The notes below the pieces were generated by a model. That model searched no databases. It was not told the origin of the DNA and worked only from the letters and a program-made list of their open reading frames with translations. The position numbers were made by a program, and so were the translations under genes. A DNA stretch of 64,000 nt from a virus, in UHGV virus genome UHGV-1342921; one strand, 5' to 3'. Shown piece after piece: positions 7,279-45,013 of this stretch (position 1 is the stretch's first letter; the number at the start of each line of letters is the position of its first letter).

Positions 7279-8709
7279 TTAAGCGAGAAGGGGATTCCAG
7301 TTCCTCATATCGTTGATCTCATTGTACAGCGCGTCTTCGCCTTCCTCGAACTTCCTCACAAGAGCGAAGAGGTTTGTTGTAAGACAGGTCATCAGACACA
7401 CGTTGCTCGGCATATCCTTAAACACGGTCGTCGGATATGCACCGAGGTCAAACGAGTATGAATACTTGCTTATGCTGTTCACAAACTGCACCGGGCTCGA
7501 CATGTCAAAGTTGCGTATTTCCATGTTCTGTTGGTCACTGAATAAAAACATTCTGTCAAACTTCTTATTGCCAATAACTTTGCGGATCTCGCCGATGCAA
7601 GTCGAATAACCACATGTGTGCATCGCAATGTCTTCGATGGCATCAAACGGGTTATAGTTATCAAGAATATTTCTATCAACCAAGCTTGCTGTGGACCCAA
7701 ACTTGACAATAGTGGGATCAGTGCACTTCTGGGAGACGATGTAGGCATAGCATGCGCTTGCCTCTCCAATAGACACCGTCGAACGAAGGGATAATCCTGC
7801 GTCCATCGACCCAGACACGTCTACTGCTACAAGAGTCGATCCTTCAATCACGGGGACGTTCTCCATCGACGCCTTGAACGCCTCTGACAGTTCGTACCAG
7901 TACTTGGGACATGCCTTATATGCAGTGTAGATCTGGAACGGGAACACAAGAGACTCCTTGATCTTATTTGGGTCACATAGAATCGAGAAGATGTACTTTT
8001 CTGCAAACTCCTGGGTGCAGAAATCATACTTGCTGATGTTCCTCAAGTTTCGAAGAAGGGCAAGATATCCAAGTTTGCCTTCTACAAGGAGCCTCTTCCA
8101 CTCTTCCTCTGCGTTGTCGGTGTTGCTGATTGCCGTCTCCCACACATCGGCTACAGGAATCTTGCCGGTCCTCTTGATGGTATCCACAACAGCACTGTTG
8201 GCGTGAGAGATGTTGATAATGTCAAACCAATTGTACCTCTTGCCGGTCAGCTTGTACTTGCCGAACATGTATTCGTTCATGTCGCTGACGTAGTCACAGG
8301 TTGCCTTCACAACGGCATGGCTCCTCTTCTCATAAAGGTAGTCGATTGCACCAAACAGCTCTGCGACGTCGTCAGGCCTATGGAACAGCTTCCTGTACAG
8401 GTCGCGCTTGTCCTGAAAATTATATGCGTTTAGGACTGCTCCGGCAAGGTGAGATGCAGACCTCATACCCATGACGTTCCTTGCATACACAACAGCCTTC
8501 ATGGCAAACTCTGCACCATACTTGTCCGCGATTTGGCGGGTCTTCTCAATGAGTCGTTCAGCCTGCGTCCTGTCGGACTCATAAGCGCCACCGGCAAGGA
8601 ACGAACCAAACAGGATGTTCAGCCACTCGTGCAACAAAGGCTTTTCATATGCCTCTCCACCCTCATATGTCACTGTGGTGATACCTTGCTTGTTGTTAAA
8701 CTTTGACAT
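7279..8709 (-). CDS. rsr: Ro60/Rsr-like ribonucleoprotein (TROVE domain plus a C-terminal vWA domain with a DxSGS MIDAS motif)
   Basis: N-terminal TTVTYEGGEAYEKPLL...LFGSFLAGGAYESD...MKAVVYARNVMGMRSASHLAGAVL matches the TROVE pattern. C-terminal LVAVDVSGSMDAGLS is the vWA MIDAS motif characteristic of Ro60 orthologues. The length of 476 aa is typical of bacterial Rsr. Confidence 0.65.
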   Translation of the reverse strand: MSKFNNKQGITTVTYEGGEAYEKPLLHEWLNILFGSFLAGGAYESDRTQAERLIEKTRQIADKYGAEFAMKAVVYARNVMGMRSASHLAGAVLNAYNFQDKRDLYRKLFHRPDDVAELFGAIDYLYEKRSHAVVKATCDYVSDMNEYMFGKYKLTGKRYNWFDIINISHANSAVVDTIKRTGKIPVADVWETAISNTDNAEEEWKRLLVEGKLGYLALLRNLRNISKYDFCTQEFAEKYIFSILCDPNKIKESLVFPFQIYTAYKACPKYWYELSEAFKASMENVPVIEGSTLVAVDVSGSMDAGLSLRSTVSIGEASACYAYIVSQKCTDPTIVKFGSTASLVDRNILDNYNPFDAIEDIAMHTCGYSTCIGEIRKVIGNKKFDRMFLFSDQQNMEIRNFDMSSPVQFVNSISKYSYSFDLGAYPTTVFKDMPSNVCLMTCLTTNLFALVRKFEEGEDALYNEINDMRNWNPLLA

Positions 8710-8983: not shown

Positions 8984-9709
8984 TTAAAAATCTTCGTAAT
9001 AATTTGAGTAATCTATGATCTTTAGTTTGCCGTCCTTGTCATATCCCCAATTACCCGAGTGAAGGTCATAGATGTCGTTGTCATCTAGAAACTCTCTTAA
9101 TGCGAACAAGCGCCCTATTTGATATTGCTTTTTGAGCTCCTGGGTGATTGTGTTCGGCACTCCGAATTTAAAAAACATGTTCTCACCATCTGGAATCTCG
9201 CCGTTATACTCAACATCACTGAACGGCACACATCGCTCTGACGCGTACACTGGAATCGTGTCGTACAGCGTGCCTATATATTCGGTTGGCGCAAAGAACG
9301 AGCTTACCCCATCCTCTTCTGCCTTCTTGTAGTTGTCGACCTCCAACTCACAATAGTCGCCACCGTTGCGTCTCATCTCATCCATCTCTTCGAAGCTCAT
9401 CCTGCAGACAAACTCTTTGTTTTCACCACTCTCGTCGTACTCATAGAGATCCACTCCGAAGAATGGCACTTTCACCACTTTATCCTTCACGTCCTTTAGG
9501 AAAAACACAACTTTTGTGATTCCAGCGCGCACATATTGAACGACAGAGTTGTCCCCTCCATCCTTATACTCTTGCATCCAAAGGGAATCAAACGAGTCTC
9601 CCTCTTCCGCTATCTTTTGTGCGTATAGGCCTTCGTCGATGAACAGCTCGTGGTCTGATGTGTCTAGAAAATCTTTCAACTCTTGTAGGATTCGCTGGTT
9701 TGTATCCAT
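8984..9709 (-). CDS. Hypothetical protein (241 aa)
   Basis: ORF between the rsr-like gene and the RNA ligase gene on the same strand. Confidence 0.5.
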   Translation of the reverse strand: MDTNQRILQELKDFLDTSDHELFIDEGLYAQKIAEEGDSFDSLWMQEYKDGGDNSVVQYVRAGITKVVFFLKDVKDKVVKVPFFGVDLYEYDESGENKEFVCRMSFEEMDEMRRNGGDYCELEVDNYKKAEEDGVSSFFAPTEYIGTLYDTIPVYASERCVPFSDVEYNGEIPDGENMFFKFGVPNTITQELKKQYQIGRLFALREFLDDNDIYDLHSGNWGYDKDGKLKIIDYSNYYEDF

Positions 9710-9898
9710 ATCTCTGTTGTCTCAACCCCTTCTTCTCGCAGGTTGGTATCGAACGAACGACTTCGTGAGGATATTATAGCATATTTTTTTCAAAAAGTCA
9801 AGCAAATCTCGGTGTAAAAAGTTCGACCGGCAAGAAAAAACCCGCCCACAACAGCGTGATATACTGCTATGGACGGGTTCCCCTTGGGAGGTCGTTTT

Positions 9899-10843
9899 TT
9901 ACAAGCCGATGGTGGATCGCACCTTGTCGCACGTGAACTTCTTGACAGCCTTTAGGACGATCGGGTACTTGCCGTACTTCTTGGCAATGACGTTGAACTC
10001 CTCCGAGAGAAGGTCGGAGAAAGCCATTTCCATCACCATGCCGACCATCTTGCCGTTGTTCTTGGAAAACTCTTGTCCAAGAACGTCAGACACCTTGTTG
10101 ATGCACTTTTGGATATCAGAAGAAGACACCAGGTCGTCAACAATAGCTTGCTCTATATTAGAACCTTCTGGGATGTCTTTTGTCGACTTTTGACCCTTAT
10201 TCTCCTTAAATTCGTCCCGTACAATCTTGCCTTCCTCATAGTTGCCGAAACGGGAAATGTAGTTGTAGTTCTTCACAACTACACCTTCGCCCACGACGTC
10301 AAGCGGGAGGTTGAAGTGGTTGGACTCTGCAAGCTTTGCAATGTCGTCAATAGTTACGTTCTCGTCGCTATCGTACACGTGCAACGGCGGGATAATATAC
10401 TGATAGCCATACTCCACAAGAGCCTTCGCATAAATGTCATAAGGTAGATAGCCGAAGTGCTTCTCGGTCTCACTGTTGCCGATCGTCGCGAGCTTCATGT
10501 CAAACACATAAAACTCCTTGTTGAGATAAGACTTAATGTGTCCAGCCTTGCCGCCGAGCCACTCACCACAAACCACCATGAACGGATGGCTCACACAGAA
10601 CCGACGAATCGGGTCCATATTCTCGGATTCCGTTACATGCTTGTAAAATCCAGCGTTATCCTTTTCGAGAGACAGCTCGCGGTTGCGGGATCCAGCATGG
10701 ATTACGCCTTTGTCGTCAGCCCAAACGGTTGCGTTTGTGCCGTCCAACTTCGGGAAGACGTACTTACGTCCCCTGGTTGTAAGAATATCAGGGACTTCGT
10801 TGAGTCGAACGACATGGAGGAACTTGATGTTTCCATAATTCAT
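9899..10843 (-). CDS. ATP-dependent RNA ligase, Rnl2 family (T4 Rnl2-like nucleotidyltransferase)
   Basis: Motif I KLDGTN (compare T4 Rnl2 KIHGTN). Motif III VCGEWLG (FGEFAG). Motif IV EFYVFDM (DFYVFDI). Motif V EGVVVKNY (EGYVLK). All are in the correct order and spacing. Confidence 0.8.
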   Translation of the reverse strand: MNYGNIKFLHVVRLNEVPDILTTRGRKYVFPKLDGTNATVWADDKGVIHAGSRNRELSLEKDNAGFYKHVTESENMDPIRRFCVSHPFMVVCGEWLGGKAGHIKSYLNKEFYVFDMKLATIGNSETEKHFGYLPYDIYAKALVEYGYQYIIPPLHVYDSDENVTIDDIAKLAESNHFNLPLDVVGEGVVVKNYNYISRFGNYEEGKIVRDEFKENKGQKSTKDIPEGSNIEQAIVDDLVSSSDIQKCINKVSDVLGQEFSKNNGKMVGMVMEMAFSDLLSEEFNVIAKKYGKYPIVLKAVKKFTCDKVRSTIGL

Positions 10844-10868
10844 TGAGATATCCTTTACTACTGTGCCT

Positions 10869-11213
10869 TTACTTGTCGAGAACTTCCGCTTCTGCTTTCA
10901 TCTTTGCAATCTGGTCGTATGCCATATCCTTGGTGACGGCGAACCAACCTGGCTTGTCGTCCCATCCGTAGTCAAGAGCCACACCGAAGAACTGATAGGC
11001 GAACTTCACGATGCCGGTGATCTCCTTGCGAGTGTACATGTTCATCTCTTGGCCGAGATACTCGCAAAGGGTGTTTGCGATGGACAGCTGGTCGTCTGTA
11101 TACGATTCAGGATAGGCAATCTCAATGTCGATGCCTTCAGTTGGCTGTGGGGCCTCGTCAACGACAGGCTCGTTATCTACCACGACGTCATTGTTATTCT
11201 CAACATCGCTCAT
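10869..11213 (-). CDS. Hypothetical acidic protein (about 114 aa; start trimmed to MSDVENNN...)
   Basis: GGAGA Shine-Dalgarno 4 nt upstream of the internal ATG. Confidence 0.45.
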   Translation of the reverse strand: MSDVENNNDVVVDNEPVVDEAPQPTEGIDIEIAYPESYTDDQLSIANTLCEYLGQEMNMYTRKEITGIVKFAYQFFGVALDYGWDDKPGWFAVTKDMAYDQIAKMKAEAEVLDK

Positions 11214-11311
11214 TATGTCTCCAATCAATCTGTTTTGTTTTGTTACTTATATTATCCCACAATTTAAATCTATTTGCAACAAAAAATTTTTAACCGACAC
11301 CAAAAAGGATG

Positions 11312-11554
11312 TCATTCGTCTTCTTGCTGTATGATAATTCCTTTCTTCAGAAACTTATTGTGCTCATGTATTTTAATGACCGCCTCGTAATACTCACTAA
11401 AAGCAACATACATATTTTTCAACAGGTTGTGCATATTACTTACTTTACCAGCATCAAGATTATCATAGCCGTTTAATGCATTATAAAGTTCAGACAATGC
11501 AAACTCGGTATCGGCATACTTATCACAAATGAACTCGTAAGTTTGCTTGTCCAT
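11312..11554 (-). CDS. Hypothetical small protein (80 aa)
   Basis: ORF MDKQTYEFICDKYADTEF... Confidence 0.4.
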   Translation of the reverse strand: MDKQTYEFICDKYADTEFALSELYNALNGYDNLDAGKVSNMHNLLKNMYVAFSEYYEAVIKIHEHNKFLKKGIIIQQEDE

Positions 11555-11580
11555 GATAATTCCTTTCGTTAAAACTTTAT

Positions 11581-11805
11581 TTAATCCGTGAACGATTCAA
11601 GCGTAGGACAACGCCTCAAATCGCAAGAGTCTGATATGCAACAGTAGGTAATCTCGCCAGAGTCCATGACATAATCATCAGCCGTCAAAATAATAGCTTC
11701 ATTGGCAACAGCCTCAAGGACCTTCTCTTTTGCTTCTTTTTCACTGTTGGCATCGACAATGATGGTTTTACAAAGCAGCTCGGTATAATCAACAGTGTAC
11801 TTCAT
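11581..11805 (-). CDS. Hypothetical small protein (about 74 aa; start at MKYTVDYTELL...)
   Basis: GGAAGGAAG Shine-Dalgarno 5 nt upstream of the internal ATG. Confidence 0.4.
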   Translation of the reverse strand: MKYTVDYTELLCKTIIVDANSEKEAKEKVLEAVANEAIILTADDYVMDSGEITYCCISDSCDLRRCPTLESFTD

Positions 11806-11984
11806 TGTTGCTTCCTTCCGTTTAAGAAGCGTGATTGTGTCAACATGACATTTAATATTATGCAACAATTCATACCAACTTGCAATAATGAATTTTTAAT
11901 CAATAGGATTTGCGAGTTTTACACAAACTGGTGGGTATATAAAGTAAAAGAAAATATATTATAAATATATATATAGTAGTAGTA

Positions 11985-12145
11985 GGTCATGTTGAAAAGT
12001 TGAAAACCAGGTAAAACGCCAGGTGAGAATTAAAAAAATTTTCAACATCAGTTTGTTGAGAAATCAACATTGGTTTTGATACGTTAACATAAACTGGTGG
12101 GTCAAAAGTTTTCAACAGAGTTTTCAACAAAGCTTTGTTGAAAAG
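11985..12145. promoter_or_regulatory. Array of at least seven copies of the 9-mer TTTTCAACA/TGTTGAAAA in direct and inverted arrangement; candidate operator or iteron cluster in the divergent intergenic region
   Basis: Copies at 11989-11997, 11998-12006 (partial), 12038-12046, 12053-12068 (TGTTGAgaaaTCAACA palindrome), 12108-12116, 12120-12128 and 12135-12143. The last two form the perfect 24-bp palindrome TTTTCAACAAAGCTTTGTTGAAAA. Flanked by the 12-bp direct repeat AAACTGGTGGGT at 11924 and 12100. Confidence 0.6.
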
Positions 12146-12151
12146 TTAATA

Positions 12152-12180
12152 CTTGACAATAGGTCGATATATGGGTATAG
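12152..12180 (+). promoter_or_regulatory. Sigma-70-like promoter TTGACA-17 bp-TATAGT that starts the rightward gene block
   Basis: TTGACA at 12152-12157 and TATAGT at 12175-12180 with 17-bp spacing. Sits immediately downstream of the repeat array. Confidence 0.6.
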
Positions 12181-12224
12181 TGTATTCACGCAAAACAAAT
12201 AAAAATGACGGTGATTGGAGAGCG

Positions 12225-12431
12225 ATGGTTTGTCCAAGCAAGACTTTCAAGATCGACGAGTTCGTAATCACCAGGTACTACAATAACAACAAGGACGTCT
12301 TCGGCGGCAAAGACTACGTAGATGTGATCGAAGAACCGTTCTATATGACAGATTTGAGCAAGCTCGACAAGAAAGACCGCAGGGTTGTCGAAGACTTTAT
12401 GGAAAAGCAACCCAAGAAGTACATCGGATAG
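12225..12431 (+). CDS. Hypothetical small protein (start moved to the ATG of MVCPSKTF...; the ORF-track TTG start overlaps the promoter)
   Basis: GGAGAG lies just upstream of the ATG at 12225. The track start at 12153 is the -35 hexamer itself. Confidence 0.4.
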   Translation: MVCPSKTFKIDEFVITRYYNNNKDVFGGKDYVDVIEEPFYMTDLSKLDKKDRRVVEDFMEKQPKKYIG

Positions 12432-12444
12432 GAGACAGTTTAAA

Positions 12445-12762
12445 GTGGAAACATACGAGAACAGCTTCTTTAGGCCCAAGCCGAACGACAAGAAGAAGTG
12501 TTGCCATGAACTCGACGAGCCATGTAAGCTGAATGCGTTTATCTGCACCAAGACTTGGTGGGAGACGAACATAAAGAAGTACATTCAAATGGCAGAAACC
12601 GAGTACAAGAACAAGATCGAGATAGATATCGACGAGTTTGACGACAAGCATACGGTTGACGTCAGGGTGGACGGAAAGTACGTAGCGACAGCCAAGTCGA
12701 AGGAAGAGCTTGCTGTAATACTGAAGTCTATCTACTCAATGCTCACAACTATGGCAGACTAA
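12445..12762 (+). CDS. Hypothetical protein (GTG start, VETYENSFFRPK...)
   Basis: AGGAGA Shine-Dalgarno 8 nt upstream of the GTG at 12445. Confidence 0.45.
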   Translation: METYENSFFRPKPNDKKKCCHELDEPCKLNAFICTKTWWETNIKKYIQMAETEYKNKIEIDIDEFDDKHTVDVRVDGKYVATAKSKEELAVILKSIYSMLTTMAD

Positions 12763-12846
12763 AAAATCATTGTTGACTCAAGCTGTTGTGCCGTGTTATA
12801 ATAGGTTTTGTCAAATTGGCAGAAGCGAAAAAACGAGGTACATCAA

Positions 12847-13296
12847 ATGGGAGACGTTCTGAAGAAGTCTGACATGAAATTCTTCAACGAAGCCAAGAAG
12901 ATGGCTGAAGCATCGACGTTCCCCGCATTCAAAGTCGGCTGTGTTATCGTCTACAAGGGCAAGATAGTCGGCAGTGGCTCCAATTCGAGCAAGACTTGCC
13001 CCGAACAGAAGTTCTACAATAGGCGCTATAGGGACTTCAAGGTTGGAACCAAGCCTCCTGTGGACTCGATCCACGCAGAGGTGTCGGCAATCAGGAGCGT
13101 GCCGTACACGGTCGCCAACGACATGGACTGGTCGCGTGCGAAAGTGTTTGTGTACAGGATATCCCCAGGAAAGGAGTCCGGACACGGCATGGCGAGGTGT
13201 TGCCCTGGATGCATGCACGCGATAAAGGACAAGGGGGTAAAGAAGCTCTACTACACGACTGACGACGGAATGTGTTTTGAGGATCTTGGCCGATAA
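12847..13296 (+). CDS. dCMP/CMP deaminase (zinc-dependent cytidine deaminase fold)
   Basis: HAEVSAI (H-A-E zinc and catalytic motif) and CCPGCMHAI (PCxxC zinc motif) at typical spacing. GAGGT RBS upstream of the ATG at 12847. Confidence 0.8.
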   Translation: MGDVLKKSDMKFFNEAKKMAEASTFPAFKVGCVIVYKGKIVGSGSNSSKTCPEQKFYNRRYRDFKVGTKPPVDSIHAEVSAIRSVPYTVANDMDWSRAKVFVYRISPGKESGHGMARCCPGCMHAIKDKGVKKLYYTTDDGMCFEDLGR

Positions 13297-13324
13297 AAAA
13301 TTCAACAGAAACAGGTTACAGCAA

Positions 13325-13495
13325 ATGGTAAACTTTGGCATTGTCAACAACGGTTTCTTTGAGACCATTTACAACGTCGATGACGGTCATATCGTGCGCA
13401 TGTTGCTCTTGTCTGACGAAAGCGAGGACGCGATATCGTATCTCCAGAAGAACTTTGAGTCATACAAAATCGTTTCGTATGGGTGCTATTGGTAA
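13325..13495 (+). CDS. Hypothetical small protein
   Basis: Short ORF overlapping the end of the deaminase gene; weak RBS. Confidence 0.25.
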   Translation: MVNFGIVNNGFFETIYNVDDGHIVRMLLLSDESEDAISYLQKNFESYKIVSYGCYW

Positions 13496-13527
13496 GCGTT
13501 TTTAATAGAAAAAGCGAAGGGATAGAC

Positions 13528-13728
13528 ATGATTAACGAAGACATGTATGAGCAGTATGAGGACGAGTACTCTTGTGAGTTCCAGAAGTTCACAAAGCGTA
13601 TTCCAAAGACTCAAAAAGCCGACAAGTCTACAAAGCATGACGAGATCAACGCAAAGCGTCGCGAGCGTCAGAACGAGAAGGATGCCATGGTGGCAAACAA
13701 GGACAACGAGTTTATTTTTCTTGGCTAA
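13528..13728 (+). CDS. Hypothetical small basic protein (MINEDMYEQYEDEY...)
   Basis: GAAGGGA RBS upstream of the ATG at 13528. Confidence 0.4.
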   Translation: MINEDMYEQYEDEYSCEFQKFTKRIPKTQKADKSTKHDEINAKRRERQNEKDAMVANKDNEFIFLG

Positions 13729-13745
13729 ATAAAAAGGAGCAAAAG

Positions 13746-14183
13746 GTGAAGGAATATATCGTTTACGCAAACTACGATCCCACTACCGGCATTTCCAAGA
13801 TGATTAAGTCAAACAAGTACGGCACGTTCACAGCAACGGCAGAAGTACACAAGGAGGACGCAGACGTCGCCAACAAGTGGGATGGACTCCGTTTCTGTGA
13901 GTTCAAGATTGACATGCAGGTTGAGCGTGTGCGTGCAAACATTCTCCGTGAGAGGATGAACGGCATCAAGAACGCGCTTGACTCGATCGACCCTCCCGAC
14001 CCCGACGAGGACGACTACACCTGGGACAAGATGATGATTCAGTATAGGGACGTGAAGCGTCGATATGAGACTTCAATCCAGCGATACAAGAAGATGAAGC
14101 GTGAGTATCACAACTATGCCTCTGAATGCCTTGTGATTCGACGGAAGCTCCGTCAGTACGAGAAGAACCGCAGTGGCCTTTAA
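13746..14183 (+). CDS. Hypothetical protein (145 aa, GTG start)
   Basis: AAAGGAG RBS 7 nt upstream of the GTG. Followed by a terminator. Confidence 0.5.
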   Translation: MKEYIVYANYDPTTGISKMIKSNKYGTFTATAEVHKEDADVANKWDGLRFCEFKIDMQVERVRANILRERMNGIKNALDSIDPPDPDEDDYTWDKMMIQYRDVKRRYETSIQRYKKMKREYHNYASECLVIRRKLRQYEKNRSGL

Positions 14184-14195
14184 TTAAACTGTGAA

Positions 14196-14238
14196 GCCTA
14201 TCTGCCACAAAAAGTGGTAGGTAGGCTTTTTTGTTTTG
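14196..14238 (+). terminator. Rho-independent terminator
   Basis: GCCTATCTGCCAC-aaaaa-GTGGTAGGTAGGC stem followed by TTTTTTGTTTTG. Confidence 0.65.
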
Positions 14239-14240
14239 TC

Positions 14241-14269
14241 TTGACAATAGCCAGACTGAACGCTATAAT
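14241..14269 (+). promoter_or_regulatory. Consensus sigma-70 promoter TTGACA-17 bp-TATAAT
   Basis: TTGACA at 14241-14246 and TATAAT at 14264-14269. Confidence 0.7.
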
Positions 14270-14308
14270 TATAGATAAAAGCCATAATACCAAAGGAGGA
14301 TTTAAAAT

Positions 14309-15025
14309 ATGGTGTACGTCATCGCAGACATCCACGGAAGCGCGCTGTCGCTTCAACAGGACATGAAGTATATGCCGGAGCTGACAGAAGACGACTATAT
14401 AATCATAGCTGGAGACGCTGGACTGGAATATGGGCAGTATTCTATGGGGTCGCTAAAGAAGTATATGAAGAAGCTCCCATGTACTTTTGTGGTCATGCGC
14501 GGAAACCATGACAACAGGTATCATTATATGGCACGCAACAATCCTGACAGATGGTCTTTCACAGATGACGAAATGTATGCGTATGAAAACAAATATCCAA
14601 ATATCCTGTACGTCAAAGACAGCGGTGGAGTCTACACAATAGACGGCAAGGACATACTGTTTATCCCTGGAGCGTATTCTGTAGATAAATATTATAGACT
14701 CGCAAACGGGCTTGCATACGAGCCTCATGAGGAATTGAGTTGGTTTGAAGCTGACGGATTGTTTATTGAAATCGACAATAAGCACTTTGATTATGTCATT
14801 TCTCATACTGCACCACTGTCTCTTGTGCCGAGACTAGAGCATTTATTTTTGGCCCAGGTAGACCAGGGATGCGTGTCTCATTGGACAGAGAAGATTTGTG
14901 ACGAAGTTTATACGAACTACAGCTTTAAACATTGGTACTTTGGACACTTTCACAGCGACATGGAATTAAGCGACAACGTAACGATGGTATATGCCAAATT
15001 TGGGGTGATAGGAAGCGATGAGTAA
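14309..15025 (+). CDS. Calcineurin-like metallophosphoesterase (Ser/Thr phosphatase or phosphodiesterase family)
   Basis: Motifs DIHG (ADIHGS), GDxxD (AGDAGLEYG), GNHD (MRGNHDN) and GHFH (FGHFHS) in canonical order. Confidence 0.8.
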   Translation: MVYVIADIHGSALSLQQDMKYMPELTEDDYIIIAGDAGLEYGQYSMGSLKKYMKKLPCTFVVMRGNHDNRYHYMARNNPDRWSFTDDEMYAYENKYPNILYVKDSGGVYTIDGKDILFIPGAYSVDKYYRLANGLAYEPHEELSWFEADGLFIEIDNKHFDYVISHTAPLSLVPRLEHLFLAQVDQGCVSHWTEKICDEVYTNYSFKHWYFGHFHSDMELSDNVTMVYAKFGVIGSDE

Positions 15026-15074
15026 CTCTTATTCAGAAGACTCAATCAAAGCGATGGATGGTCGTGAAGCATAA

Positions 15075-16172
15075 ATGCCAAAAAGAAAAGTATCAAAGCT
15101 TGTAGTAAAAGATAAGATGGATCAGCCAGATTATAAGTTTCCACCACCGCACGAGCCGGTATGGTATAAAGTAAATGGTCATCGCAGGCGATATTTTGAG
15201 CCTGGATGGGTTGTTGGAAATTATGGCTGTAAGTTTTTAAGGGACGCTGAATACGCGCAGAACGACGTCGAAAAAAGTCATCGTCGTGCTGACTTTATCT
15301 GTCCGCTATGCGGCGAAATTTTTAATGCTAGAGTTGACCAAGTTACAGGCGGGGAAATAAAATCTTGTGGCTGTAGAAAAAAAGTTTCAAGTGCTATCAA
15401 TGCCTACAATCTGACAACTAACGGCGGTCATCGTCATGCCGATATCACTGGTAAAAAATTTGGAAATCTAACAGCGTTATATCCAACCGAGGACAGAGGT
15501 CCAAACGGAAATATATACTGGATGTGTAAATGTGATTGTGGTAATATGTTTAAAGCTACAGTGATGGGGCTTAAAAGCGGACATAATAAAAGATGCCCTG
15601 ATTGTAGGTGGAAAGCAGAAGCAGAAAAAGACATCGGAAAACGTTTTGGAAAACTTGTGGTAACAAGACTTATCCCTGATGAAAGAACCAGTAATGGTTG
15701 CGTTATATGCGAAGCGATATGCGATTGTGGAAGAACAATTAAAATTGGACTCGGTTTTTTACACAGAGGGCAAGAATCTTGCGGAAAGTGTAGAGTTTCA
15801 AAAGGAGAAAACAAGGTTCAAGAACTTCTTTCTGCTAATGGAGTATATTTTACGCAACAAGAAAGCTTTAATGGAGACATGAAAATTGAAGGTAGCACGA
15901 TTCCATGTCGAGCAGACTTTTATCTCCCTAATCAAAAAATTGTCATAGAGTATAATGGGCAACAACATTATGAGCCTTGTGATTTCTTTGGTGGAGAAGA
16001 GAGCTTTGAAAAAACGATAAAAAGAGATGGGTGGAAGAGCAAGTATTATAAAGAACATAATCTGAAGCTTATTGAAATTCCATATAGCGATTACGAAATT
16101 CTTGATTGGGAATATCTCCAAAAGAAAGGTGTTACAAGTGAAGAACGGTTCATACAACAGCGAATCAATTAA
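15075..16172 (+). CDS. Putative free-standing homing endonuclease with three tandem zinc-ribbon modules and a C-terminal Vsr/DUF559-like (PD-(D/E)xK-type) nuclease domain
   Basis: Three repeats of C-x-C-x(2)-CG...C-x(2)-C (CPLCGEIF...CGC; CKCDCGNMF...CPDC; CEAICDCGRTIK...CGKC). C-terminal RADFYLPNQKIVIEYNGQQHY pattern. Markedly AT-rich relative to flanking genes. Overlaps the start of the topoisomerase gene. Confidence 0.45.
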   Translation: MPKRKVSKLVVKDKMDQPDYKFPPPHEPVWYKVNGHRRRYFEPGWVVGNYGCKFLRDAEYAQNDVEKSHRRADFICPLCGEIFNARVDQVTGGEIKSCGCRKKVSSAINAYNLTTNGGHRHADITGKKFGNLTALYPTEDRGPNGNIYWMCKCDCGNMFKATVMGLKSGHNKRCPDCRWKAEAEKDIGKRFGKLVVTRLIPDERTSNGCVICEAICDCGRTIKIGLGFLHRGQESCGKCRVSKGENKVQELLSANGVYFTQQESFNGDMKIEGSTIPCRADFYLPNQKIVIEYNGQQHYEPCDFFGGEESFEKTIKRDGWKSKYYKEHNLKLIEIPYSDYEILDWEYLQKKGVTSEERFIQQRIN

Positions 16173-20408: not shown

Positions 20409-20455
20409 ATGTTTTGTCAATTGGGACAGGCACAAAAAAGACAAGGAGCTCAAAA

Positions 20456-20710
20456 ATGGCAAAGAACAAGTTCTCTGACAACGCTCGTGAAGTCCTCCAT
20501 TATCTCCAGAACACCCCGCAGGAAGATATGACTTTCCGCGACATTGCAGACGCAATCGAGAAGCCTTATCGTTCTGTAAGCGCCATCATCACCGCACTCG
20601 CAAAGAAGGGCCTCGTCGAGCGAGTCCTTCAGGAGAACGGTGACAAGTACATCATCCTTACCGAGGACGGTCATATGGTCGACCCTGATGAGACTGTCGA
20701 GGAAAAGTAG
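20456..20710 (+). CDS. Small winged-helix (MarR/Rrf2-like) putative DNA-binding protein
   Basis: Start at MAKNKFSDNAREVLHYLQN with a CAAGGAG RBS. Pattern REVLHYL...MTFRDIADAI...VSAIITALAKKGLVER is typical of a wHTH domain. Confidence 0.45.
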   Translation: MAKNKFSDNAREVLHYLQNTPQEDMTFRDIADAIEKPYRSVSAIITALAKKGLVERVLQENGDKYIILTEDGHMVDPDETVEEK

Positions 20711-23933: not shown

Positions 23934-25154
23934 TTGGCGAGCAAATACGAAGACTCGACATCCGCGATTCAGGTGATAGGTGGAATCATAAACCAGCCCG
24001 AGTTGCTGGAAGACACTGGAAAGTATTTTTTTAGGGCCGAGGACTTCACATCAGAGCTGCATAGGGTTGTGTTCTCGGCAATCGGCACAATCTATGCGAA
24101 CGGCGGAACCAAAGTGACGGCCAAGGCAGTCGACGACGTTCTATCGACGTACCCCGAGGCATATGCGACCTACAAGGCGTCAAGGGGCAACGAGTGGTTT
24201 GCCAAGGTACAGGCTGAATGCGACCTCGACAACTTCGACTTGTATTACAATAGGCTCAAGAAGATGACGTTGCTTCGAGAGTACGACAACGCTGGTATAG
24301 ACGTGTCGTTCATTCTTGATATGGACGAGCTTGATGCAAAGAAACGGCAAAAACAATGGCAAGAGTTCGACAATATGAGCGCGAACGACATTGCGGACGA
24401 TATTGAAAACAAAATGTCAAAGATCAAGTCTACTTTTGTGGACAACCTAGACAAGAACACAAAACTTGTAAGTGATGGTTTGAGCACCTTGTTCAGTAAG
24501 TTGAGGAACGAGCCAGAGTTCGGCGTTCCGTTGTACGGACCTTTCATAAACACGGTGACGATGGGTGCAAGATTGACGAAGTTTTATTTGAGAAGCGCAC
24601 CTACTGGTGTTGGTAAAACTCGCATGATGATAGCCGACGTTTGCAACATCGCGTGCGACGAGATTTACGATTCCAGGATCGGTGCATGGAAAAAGAACGG
24701 TGAAAGCTTGCCGTGTCTGTACATCTCTACAGAGCTTGAAATGTCAGAGATTCAGACAATGTGCCTTGCGTTCTTGAGCAATGTCGAGGAGAACAAGATT
24801 CTCGGTGCGGAGAAGATGACTTTCGATGAGATCGACAGGGTAGAGCATGCGCTTGAGGTTCTTGAGAGAGCACCTTTGTTCATCGACATTATCTGTGACT
24901 TCTCACTCAAGGATATTGAGAACAGCATCAGGAAGAACCATAGGGAAAACAAGGTGATGTATGTCTTCTATGACTATATCATGACAACCATGAAGATTCT
25001 TGAAGAGATCACTGCGAAGTCGAAGGGTGTAAACCTCCGCGAGGACAGCATTCTGTTCATGATTAGCGTGAAGCTCAAGGATTTGGCTAATGAGCTGGGG
25101 ATATTCGTTCTTACCTCAACACAACTCAATGGTAGACTTTCTACTGCCAATTAA
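23934..25154 (+). CDS. dnaB: DnaB-like replicative helicase, exon 1 (N-terminal domain plus Walker A/B RecA-like core up to the helicase QLN motif)
   Basis: RSAPTGVGKTRMMIADV (Walker A), YVFYDYIMTTM (Walker B region), LKDLANELGIFVLTSTQLNGRLSTAN (H3/H4 region). The frame terminates at a TAA immediately after the predicted 5' splice site. Confidence 0.75.
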   Translation: MASKYEDSTSAIQVIGGIINQPELLEDTGKYFFRAEDFTSELHRVVFSAIGTIYANGGTKVTAKAVDDVLSTYPEAYATYKASRGNEWFAKVQAECDLDNFDLYYNRLKKMTLLREYDNAGIDVSFILDMDELDAKKRQKQWQEFDNMSANDIADDIENKMSKIKSTFVDNLDKNTKLVSDGLSTLFSKLRNEPEFGVPLYGPFINTVTMGARLTKFYLRSAPTGVGKTRMMIADVCNIACDEIYDSRIGAWKKNGESLPCLYISTELEMSEIQTMCLAFLSNVEENKILGAEKMTFDEIDRVEHALEVLERAPLFIDIICDFSLKDIENSIRKNHRENKVMYVFYDYIMTTMKILEEITAKSKGVNLREDSILFMISVKLKDLANELGIFVLTSTQLNGRLSTAN

Positions 25155-26228
25155 ATTCCTTATCCTTTTACCAGAGGGGTAAACGCTTCGTATAAAGTGT
25201 TTGCTAACGGGGAAGACTAAACGATAGTTATAAAAACTTCTTTTGAGAAGAACTATCGCATGTTAATCCCGTGTGATACCGCTTCTTCTCTCTTCAAGAG
25301 AGGAGATTGATTATTTTGCCTGGCAACTCTAAAATTTGTGGAATCTACAGAATCAAGAATGAATTAAACGGAAAGGTTTATATTGGGCAAAGTAAGAGAA
25401 TCTTTGGCCGATGGAACGAACATCTCCGTTCTTCTTTTCCTGAAAAATGGGCTGTAGAGACAAAGCGTGACCAAGATTTACCGCTTCATCGTTCAATAAG
25501 GAAATATGGAATAGAGAATTTTTCTTTTACTATCCTGGAAATATGTTCTCCAGAAGAGCTTAATGACAAGGAAAAAGAGTATATCAAGAAATATGAGTCA
25601 GACTTGCGTGACAAAGGATACAACCTTGCTAGTGGCGGACAAGACTCTTTTGCGTTAGCTGGTGAGCGCCATAGCCAAGCAAAACTCACACAACATCAAG
25701 TTGATGAAATAATTGATATGCTGTCTCAAGGTATTCCATTGGAAGAAATTAGCCAGAAATTTAAAGTCTCAAAGCCAGCAGTTTGCAATATAAACACAGG
25801 AAAGAATTGGCATTCTGATGATCGTCAGTATCCAATTCATAAATATGAGCCTCTTAAAGGAGAGCGAGCAGGTCAAGCTAGGCTGACAGACGAACAAGTA
25901 ATGGCTATTCGGAACGATTTTGCAGACGGAGATTTAACTCTTCAGCAAATAGCAGATAAACATGGAATCCAGTACGGAAATACAGTTTCTATCTGCTACG
26001 GATATTCTTGGACTCACCTGCCGGTGTTTAAAAAAGGGCAAAATAAAAAGCGGGGCCATGTATCGACTATCTCCGAGGCTGAAATGCGGGAGAGTAGGGC
26101 TACTAGTGGTAAGTAGCGAGGTTTTAGGAAACGAATCCTCTGAAAACCGAAATAGGATTCTATAGTATTTTACTATAGTAAGATATAGTCAGTGCTCTAG
26201 GGAAACCTAGAGACCCACGAGCTGGAAG
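25155..26228 (+). mobile_element. Group I intron (about 1.07 kb) interrupting the dnaB-like helicase gene; encodes a GIY-YIG homing endonuclease
   Basis: Exon 1 ends in U with an in-frame stop at the intron start. Conserved group I S element AAGATATAGTCAGTGC at 26180-26195, followed by a P9-type GAAA hairpin (CTCTAGGgaaaCCTAGAG). Omega-G at 26228. The joined exons restore the DnaB H4 motif (QLNGRLSTAN-TDPIPDQNLLRGSKSI versus DnaB QLNRSLEQRADKRPVNSDLRESGSI). Confidence 0.7.
25307..26116 (+). CDS. GIY-YIG homing endonuclease (I-TevI-like) encoded within the dnaB intron, with C-terminal NUMOD/HTH-like DNA-binding repeats
   Basis: ICGIYRIKNELNGKVYIGQS (GIY...YIG), R-x(3)-H, KYGIENF, N at the catalytic position. 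Repeated AKLTQHQVDEI and ARLTDEQVMAI helix-turn-helix-like modules. The start is ambiguous (TTG at 25307 or 25316). Confidence 0.75.
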   Translation: MIILPGNSKICGIYRIKNELNGKVYIGQSKRIFGRWNEHLRSSFPEKWAVETKRDQDLPLHRSIRKYGIENFSFTILEICSPEELNDKEKEYIKKYESDLRDKGYNLASGGQDSFALAGERHSQAKLTQHQVDEIIDMLSQGIPLEEISQKFKVSKPAVCNINTGKNWHSDDRQYPIHKYEPLKGERAGQARLTDEQVMAIRNDFADGDLTLQQIADKHGIQYGNTVSICYGYSWTHLPVFKKGQNKKRGHVSTISEAEMRESRATSGK

Positions 26229-26597
26229 ACAGACCCAATACCTGACCAAAACTTACTTCGAGGGAGTAAGAGTATTTGTGACAAGGTCGACTACGCCAGT
26301 ATTGCCCTCGACGTCACAGAAGACGACTTGGAGAGGATCCGCCCTATCTTGAGTAGCATTCCCGTTGTGCCGAACGTAAAGATGAGCGTATACAAGAACA
26401 GGCGCGGTGCATACAACAGGATCTTCCTTTGGATGTATGCGAACAAGGGAACCTGCCGCTACGAGACGATGTTCGCCACTGATTTCAACTACCACCCCAT
26501 AGACCTTAAAGAGACCGAACTGATTGTAAAGAGGGACGACACAGAGGAAGAGAAAGAGCCTGTTATCCTAGACGGTGGTGATGACCTTGAGTTTTGA
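26229..26597 (+). CDS. dnaB: DnaB-like helicase, exon 2 (C-terminal H4 motif through the end)
   Basis: TDPIPDQNLLRGSKSICDKVDYASIALDV aligns with DnaB ...DLRESGSIEQDADVV. KNRRGAYNRIFLWMYANKGTCRYETMF aligns with the DnaB C-terminus KQRNGPTGTVKLAF...TRF. Confidence 0.65.
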   Translation, partial: TDPIPDQNLLRGSKSICDKVDYASIALDVTEDDLERIRPILSSIPVVPNVKMSVYKNRRGAYNRIFLWMYANKGTCRYETMFATDFNYHPIDLKETELIVKRDDTEEEKEPVILDGGDDLEF

Positions 26598-27630
26598 TAT
26601 TCAGAAGGTCAAGGAGCAGATAACCCCATATGAGATATGCGAGATTCTTGAGTACCTCGGAGCCGAGCCCGAGATGCGCGGTGACTCTATCGTGTCAAAG
26701 ACAGTGTCACATGGCGGAGACTCAAAGAAGCTGTTCTACTATTCCAACACCCAGCTGTTCATCGACTACACGAACGGAGGCGACAGGTTCGACGTGTTCG
26801 AGCTTGTCTCCCGAGTTCTTGGCATGAAGCTGGTCGACGCAATCTGGTTTGTCGTAAGCTTCCTCAACCTCCAAGGCGACTTCTCTGACTCGATAACAAG
26901 TGACTGGGGGACGTTCGACAGGTACGACTCGATCGGCACACAGAACTCCGTGGACAACATGGTGCTACCGACGTTGTTGCCGGAGATACTTGACAACTAC
27001 CCCAAAGTAGTGGTAAAATCATGGCAAGAGAGTTTCATAACGCCAGAGGTTCAAGACATGTTCGACATAAGGTTCAACCCACTCGACTCATCTATCCTGA
27101 TTCCGCACAAGAACATCTATGGTGACATTATAGGCGTCAGGAAGAGGGCTCTTGTGGACGACGACATAGCGCTTGGCAAATACCGCCCAGCCGTCATAGG
27201 CGGGGAGCTTCGGAACCATCCGCTCGCATTCAACCTGTACGGCATAGACATGGCGAAAGATGCCATACAAGAGTCGGGATTGGCGATAGTGGCGGAATCA
27301 GAGAAGTCCGTGTTGCAATCCCACAGCTACGGCATACCGCAGACTGTGGCCTGTTGCGGGAGCTCTATCTCAATCTACCAGGTGAACATGCTTGTAAAGG
27401 CAGGGGCGAAGGAGCTTGTGATAGCTTTCGACCACGACTTCACAGACTTGGAGAGCGAGGAGGCACAGCAAGTCGCAACAAGGCTCAACAAGCTTAACGA
27501 CAAGATATCGCCTTATCTCAAAGTGTCGTTCTTATGGGACAAGGAGAACCTGCTAGGCTACAAAGACTCTCCGTTCGACAGAGGTAAAGACGTCCTAATG
27601 AAACTATGGAAGAACAGGGTGGTGCTATAA
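26575..27630 (+). CDS. DNA primase (DnaG-type TOPRIM primase)
   Basis: TOPRIM motifs LAIVAESEKSVLQ (conserved Glu) and VIAFDHDFTD (DxD). Overlaps the helicase stop by 23 nt, suggesting coupled expression. Confidence 0.7.
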   Translation: MVMTLSFDIQKVKEQITPYEICEILEYLGAEPEMRGDSIVSKTVSHGGDSKKLFYYSNTQLFIDYTNGGDRFDVFELVSRVLGMKLVDAIWFVVSFLNLQGDFSDSITSDWGTFDRYDSIGTQNSVDNMVLPTLLPEILDNYPKVVVKSWQESFITPEVQDMFDIRFNPLDSSILIPHKNIYGDIIGVRKRALVDDDIALGKYRPAVIGGELRNHPLAFNLYGIDMAKDAIQESGLAIVAESEKSVLQSHSYGIPQTVACCGSSISIYQVNMLVKAGAKELVIAFDHDFTDLESEEAQQVATRLNKLNDKISPYLKVSFLWDKENLLGYKDSPFDRGKDVLMKLWKNRVVL

Positions 27631-32262: not shown

Positions 32263-34749
32263 CCTTCGATTAGACTATCATTGTCATAGTTCATTGTCGA
32301 ATATCCGCTTACTTTGACTCGATCAATACTCTCGAAGATCTAACCAAACGAGCTGTCGAATTAGGTCTCCCTGGCATTGCGATTACTGAACACGAATGCC
32401 TTGGTAACTCTATTGATATAGAAATCCTTCAAGAAAAAATTCGACAAGAGCATCCTAGTTTTAAGATTGTTCATGGCAACGAAATCTACCTTACAGACGA
32501 TCGGTCTATGGGGCAAAAATACTATCATTTTATTTTGTTAGCTCTTGACGAGGTTGGTTTCCACATGATGTCCGAGCTGTCGTCTACCGCCTGGCTGAAC
32601 GGGTATTTCGACCGAGGACTCATGCGCGTGCCGACTTTGAAGTCAGACGTCGAGGACGTAATCAAGCGTTACGGGCAAGGCCACATCTACGCAAGCCAGG
32701 CTTGTCTTGGGTCGGAGTTAAGCACTTATGTCCTGAAAATGCACGACTGCCAGGAGAAGGGTGACAAAGAAGGTCGCAAGCACTGGCACGACGAGATCGT
32801 CAAGTTTGTGAGCTGGTGCACGAACACGTTCGGCAAGGACAACTTCTGCTTTGAGATTCAGCCGTCAAGGTCGCACGACCAGTTGATTCTCAATAACATC
32901 ATGCCGTCCATCGCAAAGGCGTTCAAACTGCCGATGTGCATTACGTGCGACGCCCATTACTTGACAAAGGAAGACGCCCCGATTCATAAGGCGTTCCTGA
33001 ACTCCAAGCAAGGCGATCGAGAGGTTGACGAGTTCTATTCTGCGACGTGGTTGCAGTCGGAGGATGAGATTCTTGAGCACCTTGAAGGCACTCCCGTCGA
33101 TTATGAGCAATGTTGCAAAGACAGCATGGCAATCTTTGATAGGGTGCAGGACTTCACCTTGAGGAAGCCACAAGAGGTGCCTGAAGCTCCCGTGCCGTTC
33201 AAGCCCAAGCGACATGTGGAATGTTCTAAATATCCCATCTTGTCGAAGCTGTATGAGTCTGACAGCGAGCAGGAAAGGTTCTGGGTAAACGAGTGCATCG
33301 GCCAACTGAAGAAACGAGGGCTGTATAACGACCAATACGTTTCAAGACTTGAAGAAGAAGCCGACGTTATGGATTATATCGGGCAGAAGCTCAACACCTG
33401 CATCTTCGCCTACTCACTGTTCATGCGCCACTATATCGACCTGATTTGGAACTGTGGCTCAACGGTTGGTGTCGGTCGTGGATCAGCTGGTGGCGGTTTA
33501 TCTCACTGGTTGCTTGGCATCACCGGCACAGACCCTATTATTAGTGGTAGCCATTTTTGGAGGTTTCTTAATAAAGAACGTGTCGAACTGCCTGATATTG
33601 ATATTGACGTGTGCCCATCCAAGCGAGAAGCTGTCTTCGAAGAGACACGCAAGGAGACTGGAGAGCTTGGTTGCGTGCACGTGTGCACCTATGGAACATT
33701 AACAACAAAGGCAACTATCAAGCTGGCTGGGCGAGGATACCGTTCCAAAGAGTACCCAAACGGCATCCCTCTTGAAGAGACTGAATACATCTCCTCTCTT
33801 GTGCCCTCCGAACGAGGATTTTTATGGACACTTAAGGACGTCATAAACGGCAATCCTGACAAGGGACGAAAGGCATCTGTGCAATTCAATGCAGAGATTG
33901 AGAAGTACCCTGGTCTCAAAGAGATTCTGTTCAAGATTGAAGGTCTTGTAGTTCAAGCAGGCATCCACGCAAGCGGTGTGATCTACCCGCCCAAGGAGGA
34001 CTATTACCGTTATGGACCTTTCATGAAGGCCAAGAACGGCACCATCATCACGCAGTATTCCCTGCACATGGCAGAAGCGGCAGGTGCCACCAAGATTGAC
34101 TGGCTCGTCACAGAAGTCCAAGAGGTCATCACCCAGTGCATCGAGGAGCTTCAGCAGGCTGGGTACATCGAGAAAGGCTTAACCCTGCGCGAGGCTTATG
34201 ACAAGTACGTCAGCCCTGATGCGATTCCTCTTGACGACCCTGACACTTGGGACGCTGTAGACCGAGCAGATGTCCTCAAGCTATTCCAGCTCGACTCTAT
34301 GATCGGTCGTCAAGGTGCAAGGCTCATCAAGCCTCGTTCAATCGAGGAGCTGACGGCTGTCAACGCATTGATTCGACTGATGGCAGACGACGGTGAGGAG
34401 CGCCCAATGGACAGGTACGTCCGTCACAAGGCGCATCCGGAAGAGTGGGAGAAGGAACTTGACGAGTACGGCCTGTCAGACGAGGAGAAGACTGTCCTAC
34501 ACAAGCATTTCGACTCAAGCTACGGCGTCTGCTACGCACAAGAGCAGATGATGATGGCATTGATGGACCCAGGCATTTGTGGGTTTGACTTCAAAGCCAG
34601 TAACCAGGCAAGAAAAATCGTGGCGAAGAAAAAGTTCGATCAGATTGAAAGCTTGCATAAGCAGATTGTTGAGAGTGCCGTTTCACCTGCTATGGCAAAG
34701 TATGTGTGGGACGTTGTCGTTAAACCTTCGTTAGGATACAGCTTCAACT
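32249..34749 (+). CDS. dnaE: DNA polymerase III alpha subunit (DnaE-type), exon 1. Translation needs a +1 frameshift at CTT TGA C (32312-32318); the PHP domain and polymerase core follow
   Basis: ATG at 32249 with a GAGGGAGGGAAGG RBS gives MTTTNLRLDYHCHSSLSNIRLL then TGA. The +1 frame continues DSINTLEDLTKRAVELGLPGIAITEHE...KIVHGNEIYL (PHP motifs), then ...GIHASGVIY..., KIDWLVTEV, ...SLGYSF. The ORF-track start at 32508 is an internal Met. Confidence 0.7.
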
Positions 34750-35036
34750 AGAGGAGCCTTTTACCGGTGACGGTAATAGCAAAGCTACTTAACTGCGGGA
34801 ACTTCTTTAGAGCCTATAACTACCAACCGTGCGTGGCGACATACATGGGGCAGAGGGTAACGCCCGAGATATGGTAACAAGGTTATAGGATTAGAAAATC
34901 CGCAACGCCACCTCTGGCTGTTAGACAGAGGAACGCCCAGAGACTACCACGTAGCCTTCTCTACAAGAGAAGATGGTATAGTCCAGACCGCAACACATAA
35001 GTGGCTGGGGAGACCCAGTGCGGTATTGCTCAAACG
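34750..35036 (+). mobile_element. ORF-less group I intron (about 290 nt) in dnaE; the boundaries are approximate
   Basis: The Pol III alpha alignment breaks between ...GYSFN and (F)HGYSYSIIGYQCAWLATHYP (canonical [27 protein letters not shown]). In-frame stops lie on both sides. The intervening sequence has a P-like AACTGCGGGAAC, a Q-like AAATCCGCAACG and an S-like AGATGGTATAGTCC element. Omega-G at 35036. Confidence 0.55.
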
Positions 35037-44836: not shown

Positions 44837-45013
44837 CTTGAAGAAATCAGACTATGATGTAATAGATATTATTTGCGCTGCTGTACTAACACTATTTGGC
44901 ATTTACCTCGTTTTTGTTCTTGTCGTTGCCGTAGTTAGTGAAATACAAGCAGCCAATGGAGAGACTCCAATAACCACCAAGACCTGTTGCTGTTGTGAAG
45001 TGAAGAATAAGTA
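44837..45013 (+). CDS. Small single-pass membrane protein (58 aa, TTG start) ending in a Cys-rich tail; below the ORF-track size cut-off
   Basis: Translates as MKKSDYDVIDIICAAVLTLFGIYLVFVLVVAVVSEIQAANGETPITTKTCCCCEVKNK with a hydrophobic 22-residue core. AAAGGA upstream. A terminator follows immediately. Confidence 0.35.

Follow-up and report, generated by a model that had tools for sequence, protein, structure and literature searches.

A host-type DnaA-box and DnaA-trio module, a likely replication origin, between the divergent early promoters of a large phage

The virus genome UHGV-1342921, of which we analyzed a window of 64,000 nucleotides (64 kb of a phage genome of about 140 kb), changes gene orientation at an intergenic region (11806-12224) delimited by the start codons of two divergent genes. 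This region holds an array of a nine-nucleotide sequence, TTTTCAACA, that resembles the binding site (DnaA box) of the bacterial replication initiator DnaA. Counting both strands, the window contains seven exact copies of TTTTCAACA, against 1.17 expected from shuffled sequences, and five of the seven lie within 11990-12144. Together with two one-mismatch copies they make up seven boxes (Table 1), in agreement with the original prediction, drawn from the sequence alone, that at least seven copies including a perfect 24-bp palindrome would be found in about 155 bp, although the coordinates given there were mostly 1 bp low. A motif-frequency check, which had also been proposed, revealed that the 9-mer is strongly clustered within the window rather than evenly frequent; elsewhere, every 300-bp interval holds at most one box of the relaxed family. 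A repeat finder resolved the array into a tandem pair (11990-12006), two 24-bp inverted pairs of 9-N6-9 structure located 82 bp apart, and a single box, with 9-mers in both orientations and spacings of 8, 12, 15, 41, 55 and 70 bp. The sequence TGTTGAgaaaTCAACA, formerly described as an imperfect palindrome, fits better as the right half of the imperfect 9-N6-9 pair at 12039-12062.

The most informative part of the locus, which had been missed in the original prediction, is the (TAG)4 run and the 95%-AT block that adjoins it. Read 5' to 3' on the + strand, positions 11937-12007 comprise the AT-rich block, TAGTAGTAGTAG, that is, (TAG)4, the spacer GTCA, and the tandem boxes as TGTTGAAA and AGTTGAAAA. 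Elements of this kind form the basal unwinding system (BUS) of bacterial chromosomal origins, reportedly described by Richardson in 2016. In bacterial origins the BUS combines tandem boxes #6/#7, DnaA-trios and an AT-rich region, as in B. subtilis incC (PMC6669920; PMC8287927). It has been defined (Pelliciari 2021, PMC8287927) as a DnaA box with at most two mismatches and an optional second tandem box, separated by a spacer of at most 16 bp (the former "GC-rich region", averaging 4 bp) from at least three DnaA-trios (NAN, consensus 3'-GAT-5'), which are followed by an AT-rich region. Each of these elements was found at the phage locus: a box, a tandem co-oriented box (for which up to four mismatches were allowed), at least three trios and an AT-rich element past the trios. 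A scan for a box with at most one mismatch within 16 nt of at least three CTA returned a single hit in the window and one hit in 200 shuffled windows. By nearest-neighbor energies, no 30-, 40- or 50-bp duplex in the window is less stable than that of 11936-11975, with a 40-bp energy of -33.5 kcal/mol versus -39.0 kcal/mol for the runner-up.

The resemblance extends to strand and spacing. Table S1 of PMC8287927 displays the trio strand 3' to 5', with B. subtilis as AATAGGTGT/TTAGGTGT/CCGG/GATGAT...; written 5' to 3', the trio strand reads ...TAGTAG-GGCC-TGTGGATT-TGTGGATAA in B. subtilis and TAGTAGTAG-GTGC-TGTGGATT-GGTGGATAA in S. aureus. In both species the "gap region" is also 4 bp long (CCGG and CGTG, respectively; Table S1), and boxes #6/#7 use an 8-bp register (PMC8287927). 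The phage module, with trios on the + strand and boxes reading TTTTCAACA on the - strand, has the arrangement of all Table S1 entries, and it shares with the bacterial BUS the order, strand and orientation of the elements, the 4-bp spacer, the trio consensus in four copies, the 8-bp register and a putative duplex unwinding element (DUE) past the trios. It differs in lying between phage early promoters without dnaA or dnaN beside it, in its small size of seven boxes, in a downstream replisome that is presumably the phage's own, and in using TTTTCAACA instead of TTATCCACA as its box; the proximal box has two mismatches to TTATCCACA and none to the box of Oscillospirales chromosomal origins. For P. 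gingivalis, PMC8287927 Table S1 gives the same motif, written AAAAGTTGT (equivalent to TTTTCAACA), as the predicted BUS box, and for one Chlamydophila genome as the species-specific box motif.

Table 1. Coordinates of the boxes, putative unwinding elements, promoters, repeats and selected genes in the analyzed window
Feature	Position	Strand	Sequence or type	Remarks
34-nt direct repeat, copy a	11903-11936	+	core ACAcAAACTGGTGGGT at 11916-11936	core invariant in five genomes; adjoins DUE
Putative DUE	11937-11973		37 bp, 95% A+T	
Four consensus DnaA-trios	11974-11985	+	5'-TAG-3' x4 (= 3'-GAT-5' x4)	read from sequence
Spacer, trios to proximal box	11986-11989		4 bp, GTCA	GTCG in relatives
BUS proximal DnaA box	11990-11998	-	exact TTTTCAACA	invariant; 4 bp from trios
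BUS distal DnaA box	11998-12006	-	TTTTCAACt, one mismatch	tandem, co-oriented, 8-bp register; invariant
Exact TTTTCAACA copies	11990-11998, 12039-12047, 12109-12117, 12121-12129, 12136-12144	-, +, +, +, -		
One-mismatch TTTTCAACA copies	11998-12006, 12054-12062	-, -		with the exact copies, seven boxes in 155 bp
Inverted box pair, imperfect	12039-12062		TTTTCAACAtcagttTGTTGAgAA	6-bp gap; starts 77 nt from first trio
34-nt direct repeat, copy b	12069-12102	+	core ACAtAAACTGGTGGGT at 12084-12102	between box groups
Single DnaA box	12109-12117	+	exact TTTTCAACA	one change in one of five genomes (L181)
Inverted box pair, perfect 24-bp palindrome	12121-12144		TTTTCAACAaagcttTGTTGAAAA	6-bp gap; starts 159 nt from trios
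P_L, candidate leftward early promoter	11857-11885	-	TTGCAA-17-CATAAT	consensus score 9/12
P_R, rightward early promoter	12153-12181	+	TTGACA-17-TATAGT	consensus score 11/12
First leftward gene	11581-11805	-	74 aa, DpnD/PcfM-like	Pfam PF14207, E=1.5e-7; ATG at 11805
First rightward gene	12225-12431	+	68 aa, no family match	GGAG 4 nt 5' of ATG
MarR-type winged-helix protein	20414-20710			replication block; weak PHROG match to "replication initiation protein" family, E=3e-4

We scanned a GTDB collection of one genome per species for three co-oriented copies of TTTTCAACA separated by gaps of up to 30 nt. At least 120 loci were obtained, against about 0.06 by chance on our own estimate, many of them in Oscillospiraceae, Ruminococcus, Acutalibacteraceae, Eubacteriales and other Clostridia. 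Ten loci, all from metagenome-assembled genomes (MAGs) of Oscillospiraceae, Ruminococcus or Eubacteriales, have a DnaA Walker-A signature at most about 2 kb from the cluster, and in nine of the ten it is found about 0.9 kb upstream. Pfam searches identified DnaA (PF00308 and PF08299, E down to 1e-69) in all six loci tested. Opposite to it, DnaN was recognized by its three beta-clamp domains in all four loci where a downstream open reading frame (ORF) was scanned. Since DnaA and DnaN flank these TTTTCAACA clusters, the clusters are chromosomal replication origins (oriC).

The host origins and the phage module follow the same grammar. Within the oriCs, as in an unrelated phage described below, TTTTCAACA alternates with TTTTCCACA, a sequence that conforms to the universal DnaA-box consensus TTWTNCACA. 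One host origin (L029) ends in TTTTCAACAgTTTCAACA-cccc-(CTA)5-aacatatata, and L031, L036, L043, L054, L074 and L098 are alike, with spacers of 4 bp (CCCC, GCCC or TACC) and (CTA)4-5 at the trio position. The box variants TTTTCAACA and gTTTCAACA are likewise present in L029, L031, L036, L041, L043, L054 and L074. Oscillospiraceae, Ruminococcus and Eubacteriales oriCs further share with the phage the AT-rich block and a convergent 9-N6-9 pair at an equivalent distance before the first trio: 77 nt in the phage and 75-86 nt in four host oriCs, where the pair starts at -76 in L031 and at -75 in L074, both Ruminococcus MAGs, at -86 in L036 and, with a 7-bp gap, at -86 in L029. The spacer differs, being GTCA in the phage and C-rich (CCCC/GCCC) in the hosts. 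Comparison of the phage module with all host loci by blastn returned only motif-length matches, leaving the idea of a recent capture from a host oriC unsupported; the lack of homology past the motifs points to functional mimicry or an old capture, and neither to recent transfer nor to a chimera. The possibility that the 9-mer represents a Spo0A 0A-box (TGTCGAA vs TGTTGAA) was dropped because the sequence with which the motif alternates in host oriCs is TGTGGAAAA, the form of a DnaA box, rather than TGTCGAA. Thermotogota MAGs (Mesoaciditoga and Athalassotoga; L050, L089, L124 and L082) also contain dense TTTTCAACA clusters, with 10-12 copies and, in L050, a BUS-like end, so that the box variant extends beyond the Oscillospirales.

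Modules of this type recur in other phages. Viral contigs scanned for the palindrome pattern yielded an unrelated phage contig of 141,950 bp (IMGVR_UViG_3300029692_000002, hereafter L020), in which a module at 10940-11370, about 0.7 kb from the contig end, contains 12 exact 9-mers in about 270 bp mixed with TTTTCCACA, 18 boxes with at most one mismatch and an AT-rich block followed by TAGTAGTAGTAG and two tandem boxes. A 43-kb contig (L172) carries nine co-oriented boxes and a BUS at 9140-9380. Both are larger versions of the module, and near it neither contig has any detected protein in common with the phage of the window. In addition, about 34 Microviridae genomes of complete size (4.5-6.2 kb), encoding an F capsid protein, a Chlamydia-phage scaffold protein and Rep, carry an oriC-like module of about 250 bp (e.g. 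positions 90-330 of L156); the count refers to 34 of the 37 loci L142-L178, L172 and L175 being larger phage contigs and one locus having been left out. The Microviridae module comprises 3-4 tandem boxes (TTTTCAACAcTTTCAACAcTTTCAACAggTTTTCCACA), a TTATCCACA box, tATTCAACA/TTTCAACA-ctcc-(CTA)5 and AT-rich DNA. We found no description of a DnaA-type module in Microviridae in the literature searched. A DnaA origin of the double-stranded DNA type is unexpected in a single-stranded DNA phage with rolling-circle replication, and raises the question of what role it plays there. The recurrence of the module across unrelated phages and the Microviridae fits a common factor supplied by the host, most simply DnaA, rather than a binder specific to one phage.

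Conservation among relatives is concentrated on the elements of the module. Four closely related contigs of 138-140 kb, with RNA ligases 80-90% identical, were retrieved from IMG/VR and ENA metagenomes; the five genomes compared are independent assemblies from different datasets, with phage genes on both sides of the module (the contig L179, which diverges and stops short of the module, was kept outside this footprinting). Across three genomes, variable positions amount to 1 of 75 in boxes and trios versus 15 of 64 in spacers (Fisher p=5.6e-5), and across all five the module has a mean column identity of 96%, versus 84-88% in the flanking coding DNA. The trios are invariant, the DUE differs only by a 2-bp AT indel, and in the imperfect inverted pair the boxes are invariant and the gap is variable. 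In three of the relatives (L002, L180 and L181) the first leftward gene has been replaced by unrelated sequence, with a mosaic junction at about 11850, just downstream of P_L. Because homology resumes at this point despite the gene replacement, the module and the two promoters behave as a unit. The module is absent near the ligase gene in two distant relatives, L003 (34% ligase identity) and L182 (55%).

The two promoters, P_L and P_R, are separated by 267 bp of promoter-free sequence and point away from the module. The presence of P_R 8 bp past the array had been correctly predicted. The hexamers of both promoters are invariant in the five phage genomes, and all the variable sites, four in P_L (11868, 11871, 11873 and 11877) and three in P_R (12160, 12161 and 12170), map to the spacers. 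Since every variable site falls between the hexamers, P_L and P_R are supported as real promoters. The perfect palindrome ends 8 bp 5' of the -35 hexamer of P_R, and no box overlaps the hexamers of P_L or P_R.

An array of this sequence grammar, unique in the window, matched in host oriC and selectively conserved, is in all likelihood a host-type DnaA-box/BUS module. Its resemblance to the chromosome origin of gut and rumen Ruminococcus/Oscillospiraceae makes it probable that phage replication is initiated by the DnaA of the host, and we consider it likely that the array is a functional, DnaA-dependent phage replication origin that mimics oriC between divergent early promoters. The suggestion in the original prediction of an iteron-type origin would thereby stand as regards an origin, although not as regards iterons for a phage Rep, the repeats being host-type DnaA boxes with a trio/DUE module. 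Neither the window nor the phage loci examined gave any match (E<=10) to a hidden Markov model built from eight host DnaA proteins, and the window encodes no DnaN. A phage that encodes a helicase, a primase and a polymerase and lacks DnaA in these sequences supports the reliance on host DnaA. Phage genes flank the module, which would hence work like an oriC without being one.

In the mechanism that we envision, host DnaA would bind the seven or so 9-bp boxes, recognizing in TTTTCAACA the Oscillospiraceae/Ruminococcus oriC variant, and DnaA-ATP would oligomerize from the tandem boxes across the 4-bp spacer onto the four TAG trios. The oligomer would then melt the adjoining 37-bp AT-rich element, and the phage DnaB-like helicase (23934-25154), primase (26575-27630) and Pol III alpha (32508-34751) would take over, being recruited perhaps through uncharacterized ORFs near the helicase gene or through host loaders. 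Transcription leaving the module on both sides, from P_L and P_R, would add negative supercoiling and favor melting. Replication would in this manner start at the site following DnaA binding and unwinding.

Several observations weigh against this interpretation. A phage-encoded DnaA, another initiator or a second origin could lie beyond the window in the remainder of the genome. Host oriCs contain 7-20 boxes (median 11.5), compared with seven in the phage, and their BUS boxes are mostly in a 9-bp register, whereas the phage boxes overlap by 1 bp in the 8-bp register that B. subtilis and S. aureus also use. The host assignment is indirect, as the cluster also occurs in other phyla, for instance with the Mesoaciditoga BUS (L050). 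Nucleotide skews give no help: the cumulative GC-skew minimum falls at about 11-12 kb, but genes change orientation at the same point where the skew switches, about 12 kb, and the coding-strand GC skew at third codon positions (GC3 skew) of the four gene blocks (-0.05, -0.08, -0.28 and -0.11) follows no replication-driven pattern. With GC skew confounded by gene orientation and GC3 uninformative, skew was set aside as origin evidence. Finally, the intergenic region contains a direct repeat with the core ACTGGTGGGT, detailed below, that has no role in the DnaA-origin model.

The alternative that survives best, though we judge it unlikely, is that host DnaA binds the cluster without firing an origin there, for titration or for promoter control, and that replication begins elsewhere or is recombination-dependent. 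The cluster could draw host DnaA off oriC, stopping or delaying host replication, in the manner of E. coli datA and the B. subtilis DnaA-box clusters, or it could make P_R and P_L respond to the DnaA-ATP level of the host. The phage module resembles datA and the B. subtilis clusters in placing DnaA boxes outside the chromosomal origin; to our knowledge, those clusters have no trio and DUE unwinding module. The host-type character of the boxes and the perfect palindrome ending so close to the -35 of a near-consensus promoter are both compatible with DnaA binding for these purposes, DnaA is an established transcription factor (PMC8203912), and the Sak4-like annealing protein and RecJ-like nuclease of the phage fit recombination-driven replication. 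Neither titration nor regulation, however, needs four trios at the canonical 4-bp distance and orientation or the least stable duplex of the window; trios and DUE are as conserved as the boxes, and the boxes overlap the hexamers of neither promoter. The origin role and the titration or regulatory role are not mutually exclusive, and DnaA may exert a secondary effect on the adjacent promoter.

An operator or iteron bank for a phage protein, the operator bank being the other proposal of the original prediction, appears improbable. The array would in that case be bound by the MarR-type winged helix-turn-helix protein or by the small flanking proteins, acting as repressor or activator of the early operons or as a Rep initiator, and its likeness to DnaA boxes would reflect coincidence or competition. 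Palindromic 9-N6-9 pairs beside divergent promoters lend themselves to this view, as do the presence of a MarR-like protein with a weak replication-initiation match in the replication block and the lineage-specific repeat ACTGGTGGGT, which could be the site of a phage factor. Yet the 9-mer, TTTTCCACA, the tandem pair, the trios and the equidistant N6 pair all occur in chromosomal dnaA-dnaN origins, and the same elements appear in phages without any detected protein in common with this one near the module; the 9-mer and its grammar are found in Microviridae as well. Iteron-type origins have several helically phased direct repeats, about 17-22 bp long and all oriented alike, together with an adjacent or cis-encoded Rep; here the repeats are 9-mers that face both ways and are irregularly spaced, and family scans of the neighboring genes detected no Rep family. 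Repressor operator banks consist of dyad-symmetric sites overlapping promoter hexamers, with the gene for the cognate regulator adjacent; here no site overlaps P_L or P_R, the palindrome lies off the hexamers, the same family scans gave no helix-turn-helix match and no repressor family, and the motif is common to host oriCs.

A repeat due to chance or composition, or a chimeric assembly that took in part of a host oriC, would be conceivable in an AT-rich intergenic region, in which short A/T-rich words recur by chance, but is already refuted for practical purposes by the excess and clustering of exact copies and the rarity of BUS hits in shuffled windows, by the phage genes on both sides of the module in five independently assembled genomes, and by the lack of host oriC homology past the motifs and of dnaA or dnaN nearby.

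The proposed origin also departs from those of well-known mobile elements. DnaA boxes serve as accessory sites in plasmid and prophage-plasmid origins such as P1 oriR, F, pSC101 and RK2, which rely on a Rep encoded by the element itself and bound to 17-22-bp iterons, DnaA being a helper. The phage locus resembles them as a mobile element with host DnaA boxes beside an AT-rich region, and differs in having no evident iterons or Rep and a complete DnaA-only unwinding set, trios included. Like the lambda origin and operators (OR/OL), it has repeats and an AT-rich segment near early promoters, and nearby transcription may help activation; unlike it, the lambda ori is embedded in the gene of its initiator and is bound by a phage protein (O), and the lambda operators overlap promoters. 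Modules of DnaA boxes and DnaA-trios have been described for bacterial chromosomes (PMC8287927), and no description of a phage-borne BUS was found in the full-text literature searched. Such a module is unexpected in a large phage with its own replisome, and it appears to recur in unrelated phages of the same host clade. If functional, it would provide a concrete origin for an uncultured group of ~140-kb phages without a recognizable initiator gene, and represent a virus that borrows the most conserved initiation mechanism of its host wholesale, down to the distance of the box pair. Phage replication would then be coupled to host DnaA-ATP status, in possible competition with oriC. The module would likewise document the TTTTCAACA box variant and the oriC grammar of the poorly studied Oscillospiraceae/Ruminococcus, and matching of origin grammar would constitute a new kind of host-prediction signal. 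More tentatively, and with somewhat less than even confidence, we propose that gut and rumen Oscillospirales phages, including the one analyzed here, L020, L172 and the Microviridae clade, carry complete mimics of the host oriC-unwinding system, host-specific geometry included, as DnaA-fired origins that also compete with the chromosome for DnaA-ATP, a recurrent and convergently acquired takeover with a signature from which the host could be predicted given only the phage genome.

The direct repeat mentioned above spans 34 nt, and its two copies are 76% identical with a spacing of 166. Their 3' core, ACA[C/T]AAACTGGTGGGT, ends in the 12-mer AAACTGGTGGGT (11925-11936 and 12091-12102), which the original prediction had placed 176 bp apart and on both sides of the array; the actual distance from 11925 to 12091 is 166 bp, and the second copy lies inside the array. 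In the five phage genomes the 3' core of copy b is almost invariant, with one change in L181, and its 5' half varies. The repeat and its ACTGGTGGGT core are absent from host oriCs and are lineage-specific; they could form the site of a second, perhaps phage-encoded, factor. The idea of AAACTGGTGGGT as a recurrent phage promoter or motif was rejected, given that the window contains only two exact copies and that matches with up to two mismatches are at chance level.

Searches of GenBank phages, for close matches with 9000-16000 and for distant ones with 11890-12190, returned no similar sequence. The sole Rfam match in 11400-12600, a microRNA on the palindrome, was below threshold (21.6 bits vs a gathering score of 80 bits) and was dismissed as chance. 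Rightward of the module, the genes encode a dCMP deaminase, a phosphoesterase, a GyrB/GyrA-like topoisomerase II, the MarR-type protein, ThyX, a Sak4-like ATPase, the DnaB-like helicase, the primase, a RecJ-like nuclease, a Dam methylase, Pol III alpha and a split NrdD, with several homing endonucleases interspersed. Free-standing HNH and GIY-YIG endonucleases occupy the intervals 15075-16172 and 25307-26116 of this replication block. NrdD, the anaerobic ribonucleotide reductase (37088-40422), is encoded in two ORFs interrupted by a GIY-YIG homing-endonuclease ORF (38487-39353), and Pol III alpha is also in two pieces, the second being an HHH_6 part at 35018-36346. A second leftward block encodes an endolysin and large, presumably structural proteins nearly devoid of PHROG annotation. 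At 45000-58000 the AT skew follows the reversal of gene orientation near 45 kb, but the + strand GC skew remains slightly positive there despite the - strand genes, and the GC3 skew is -0.28, versus -0.05 to -0.11 elsewhere. The leftward block adjoining the module carries six tRNA genes (Gly, Ser x2, Ile-TAT, Arg and Pro; 498-1741, - strand) together with a TROVE/Ro-like RNA-binding protein and an Rnl-type RNA ligase (intervals 7279-8709 and 9899-10843), a combination that may represent an RNA-repair or anti-tRNA-cleavage module.

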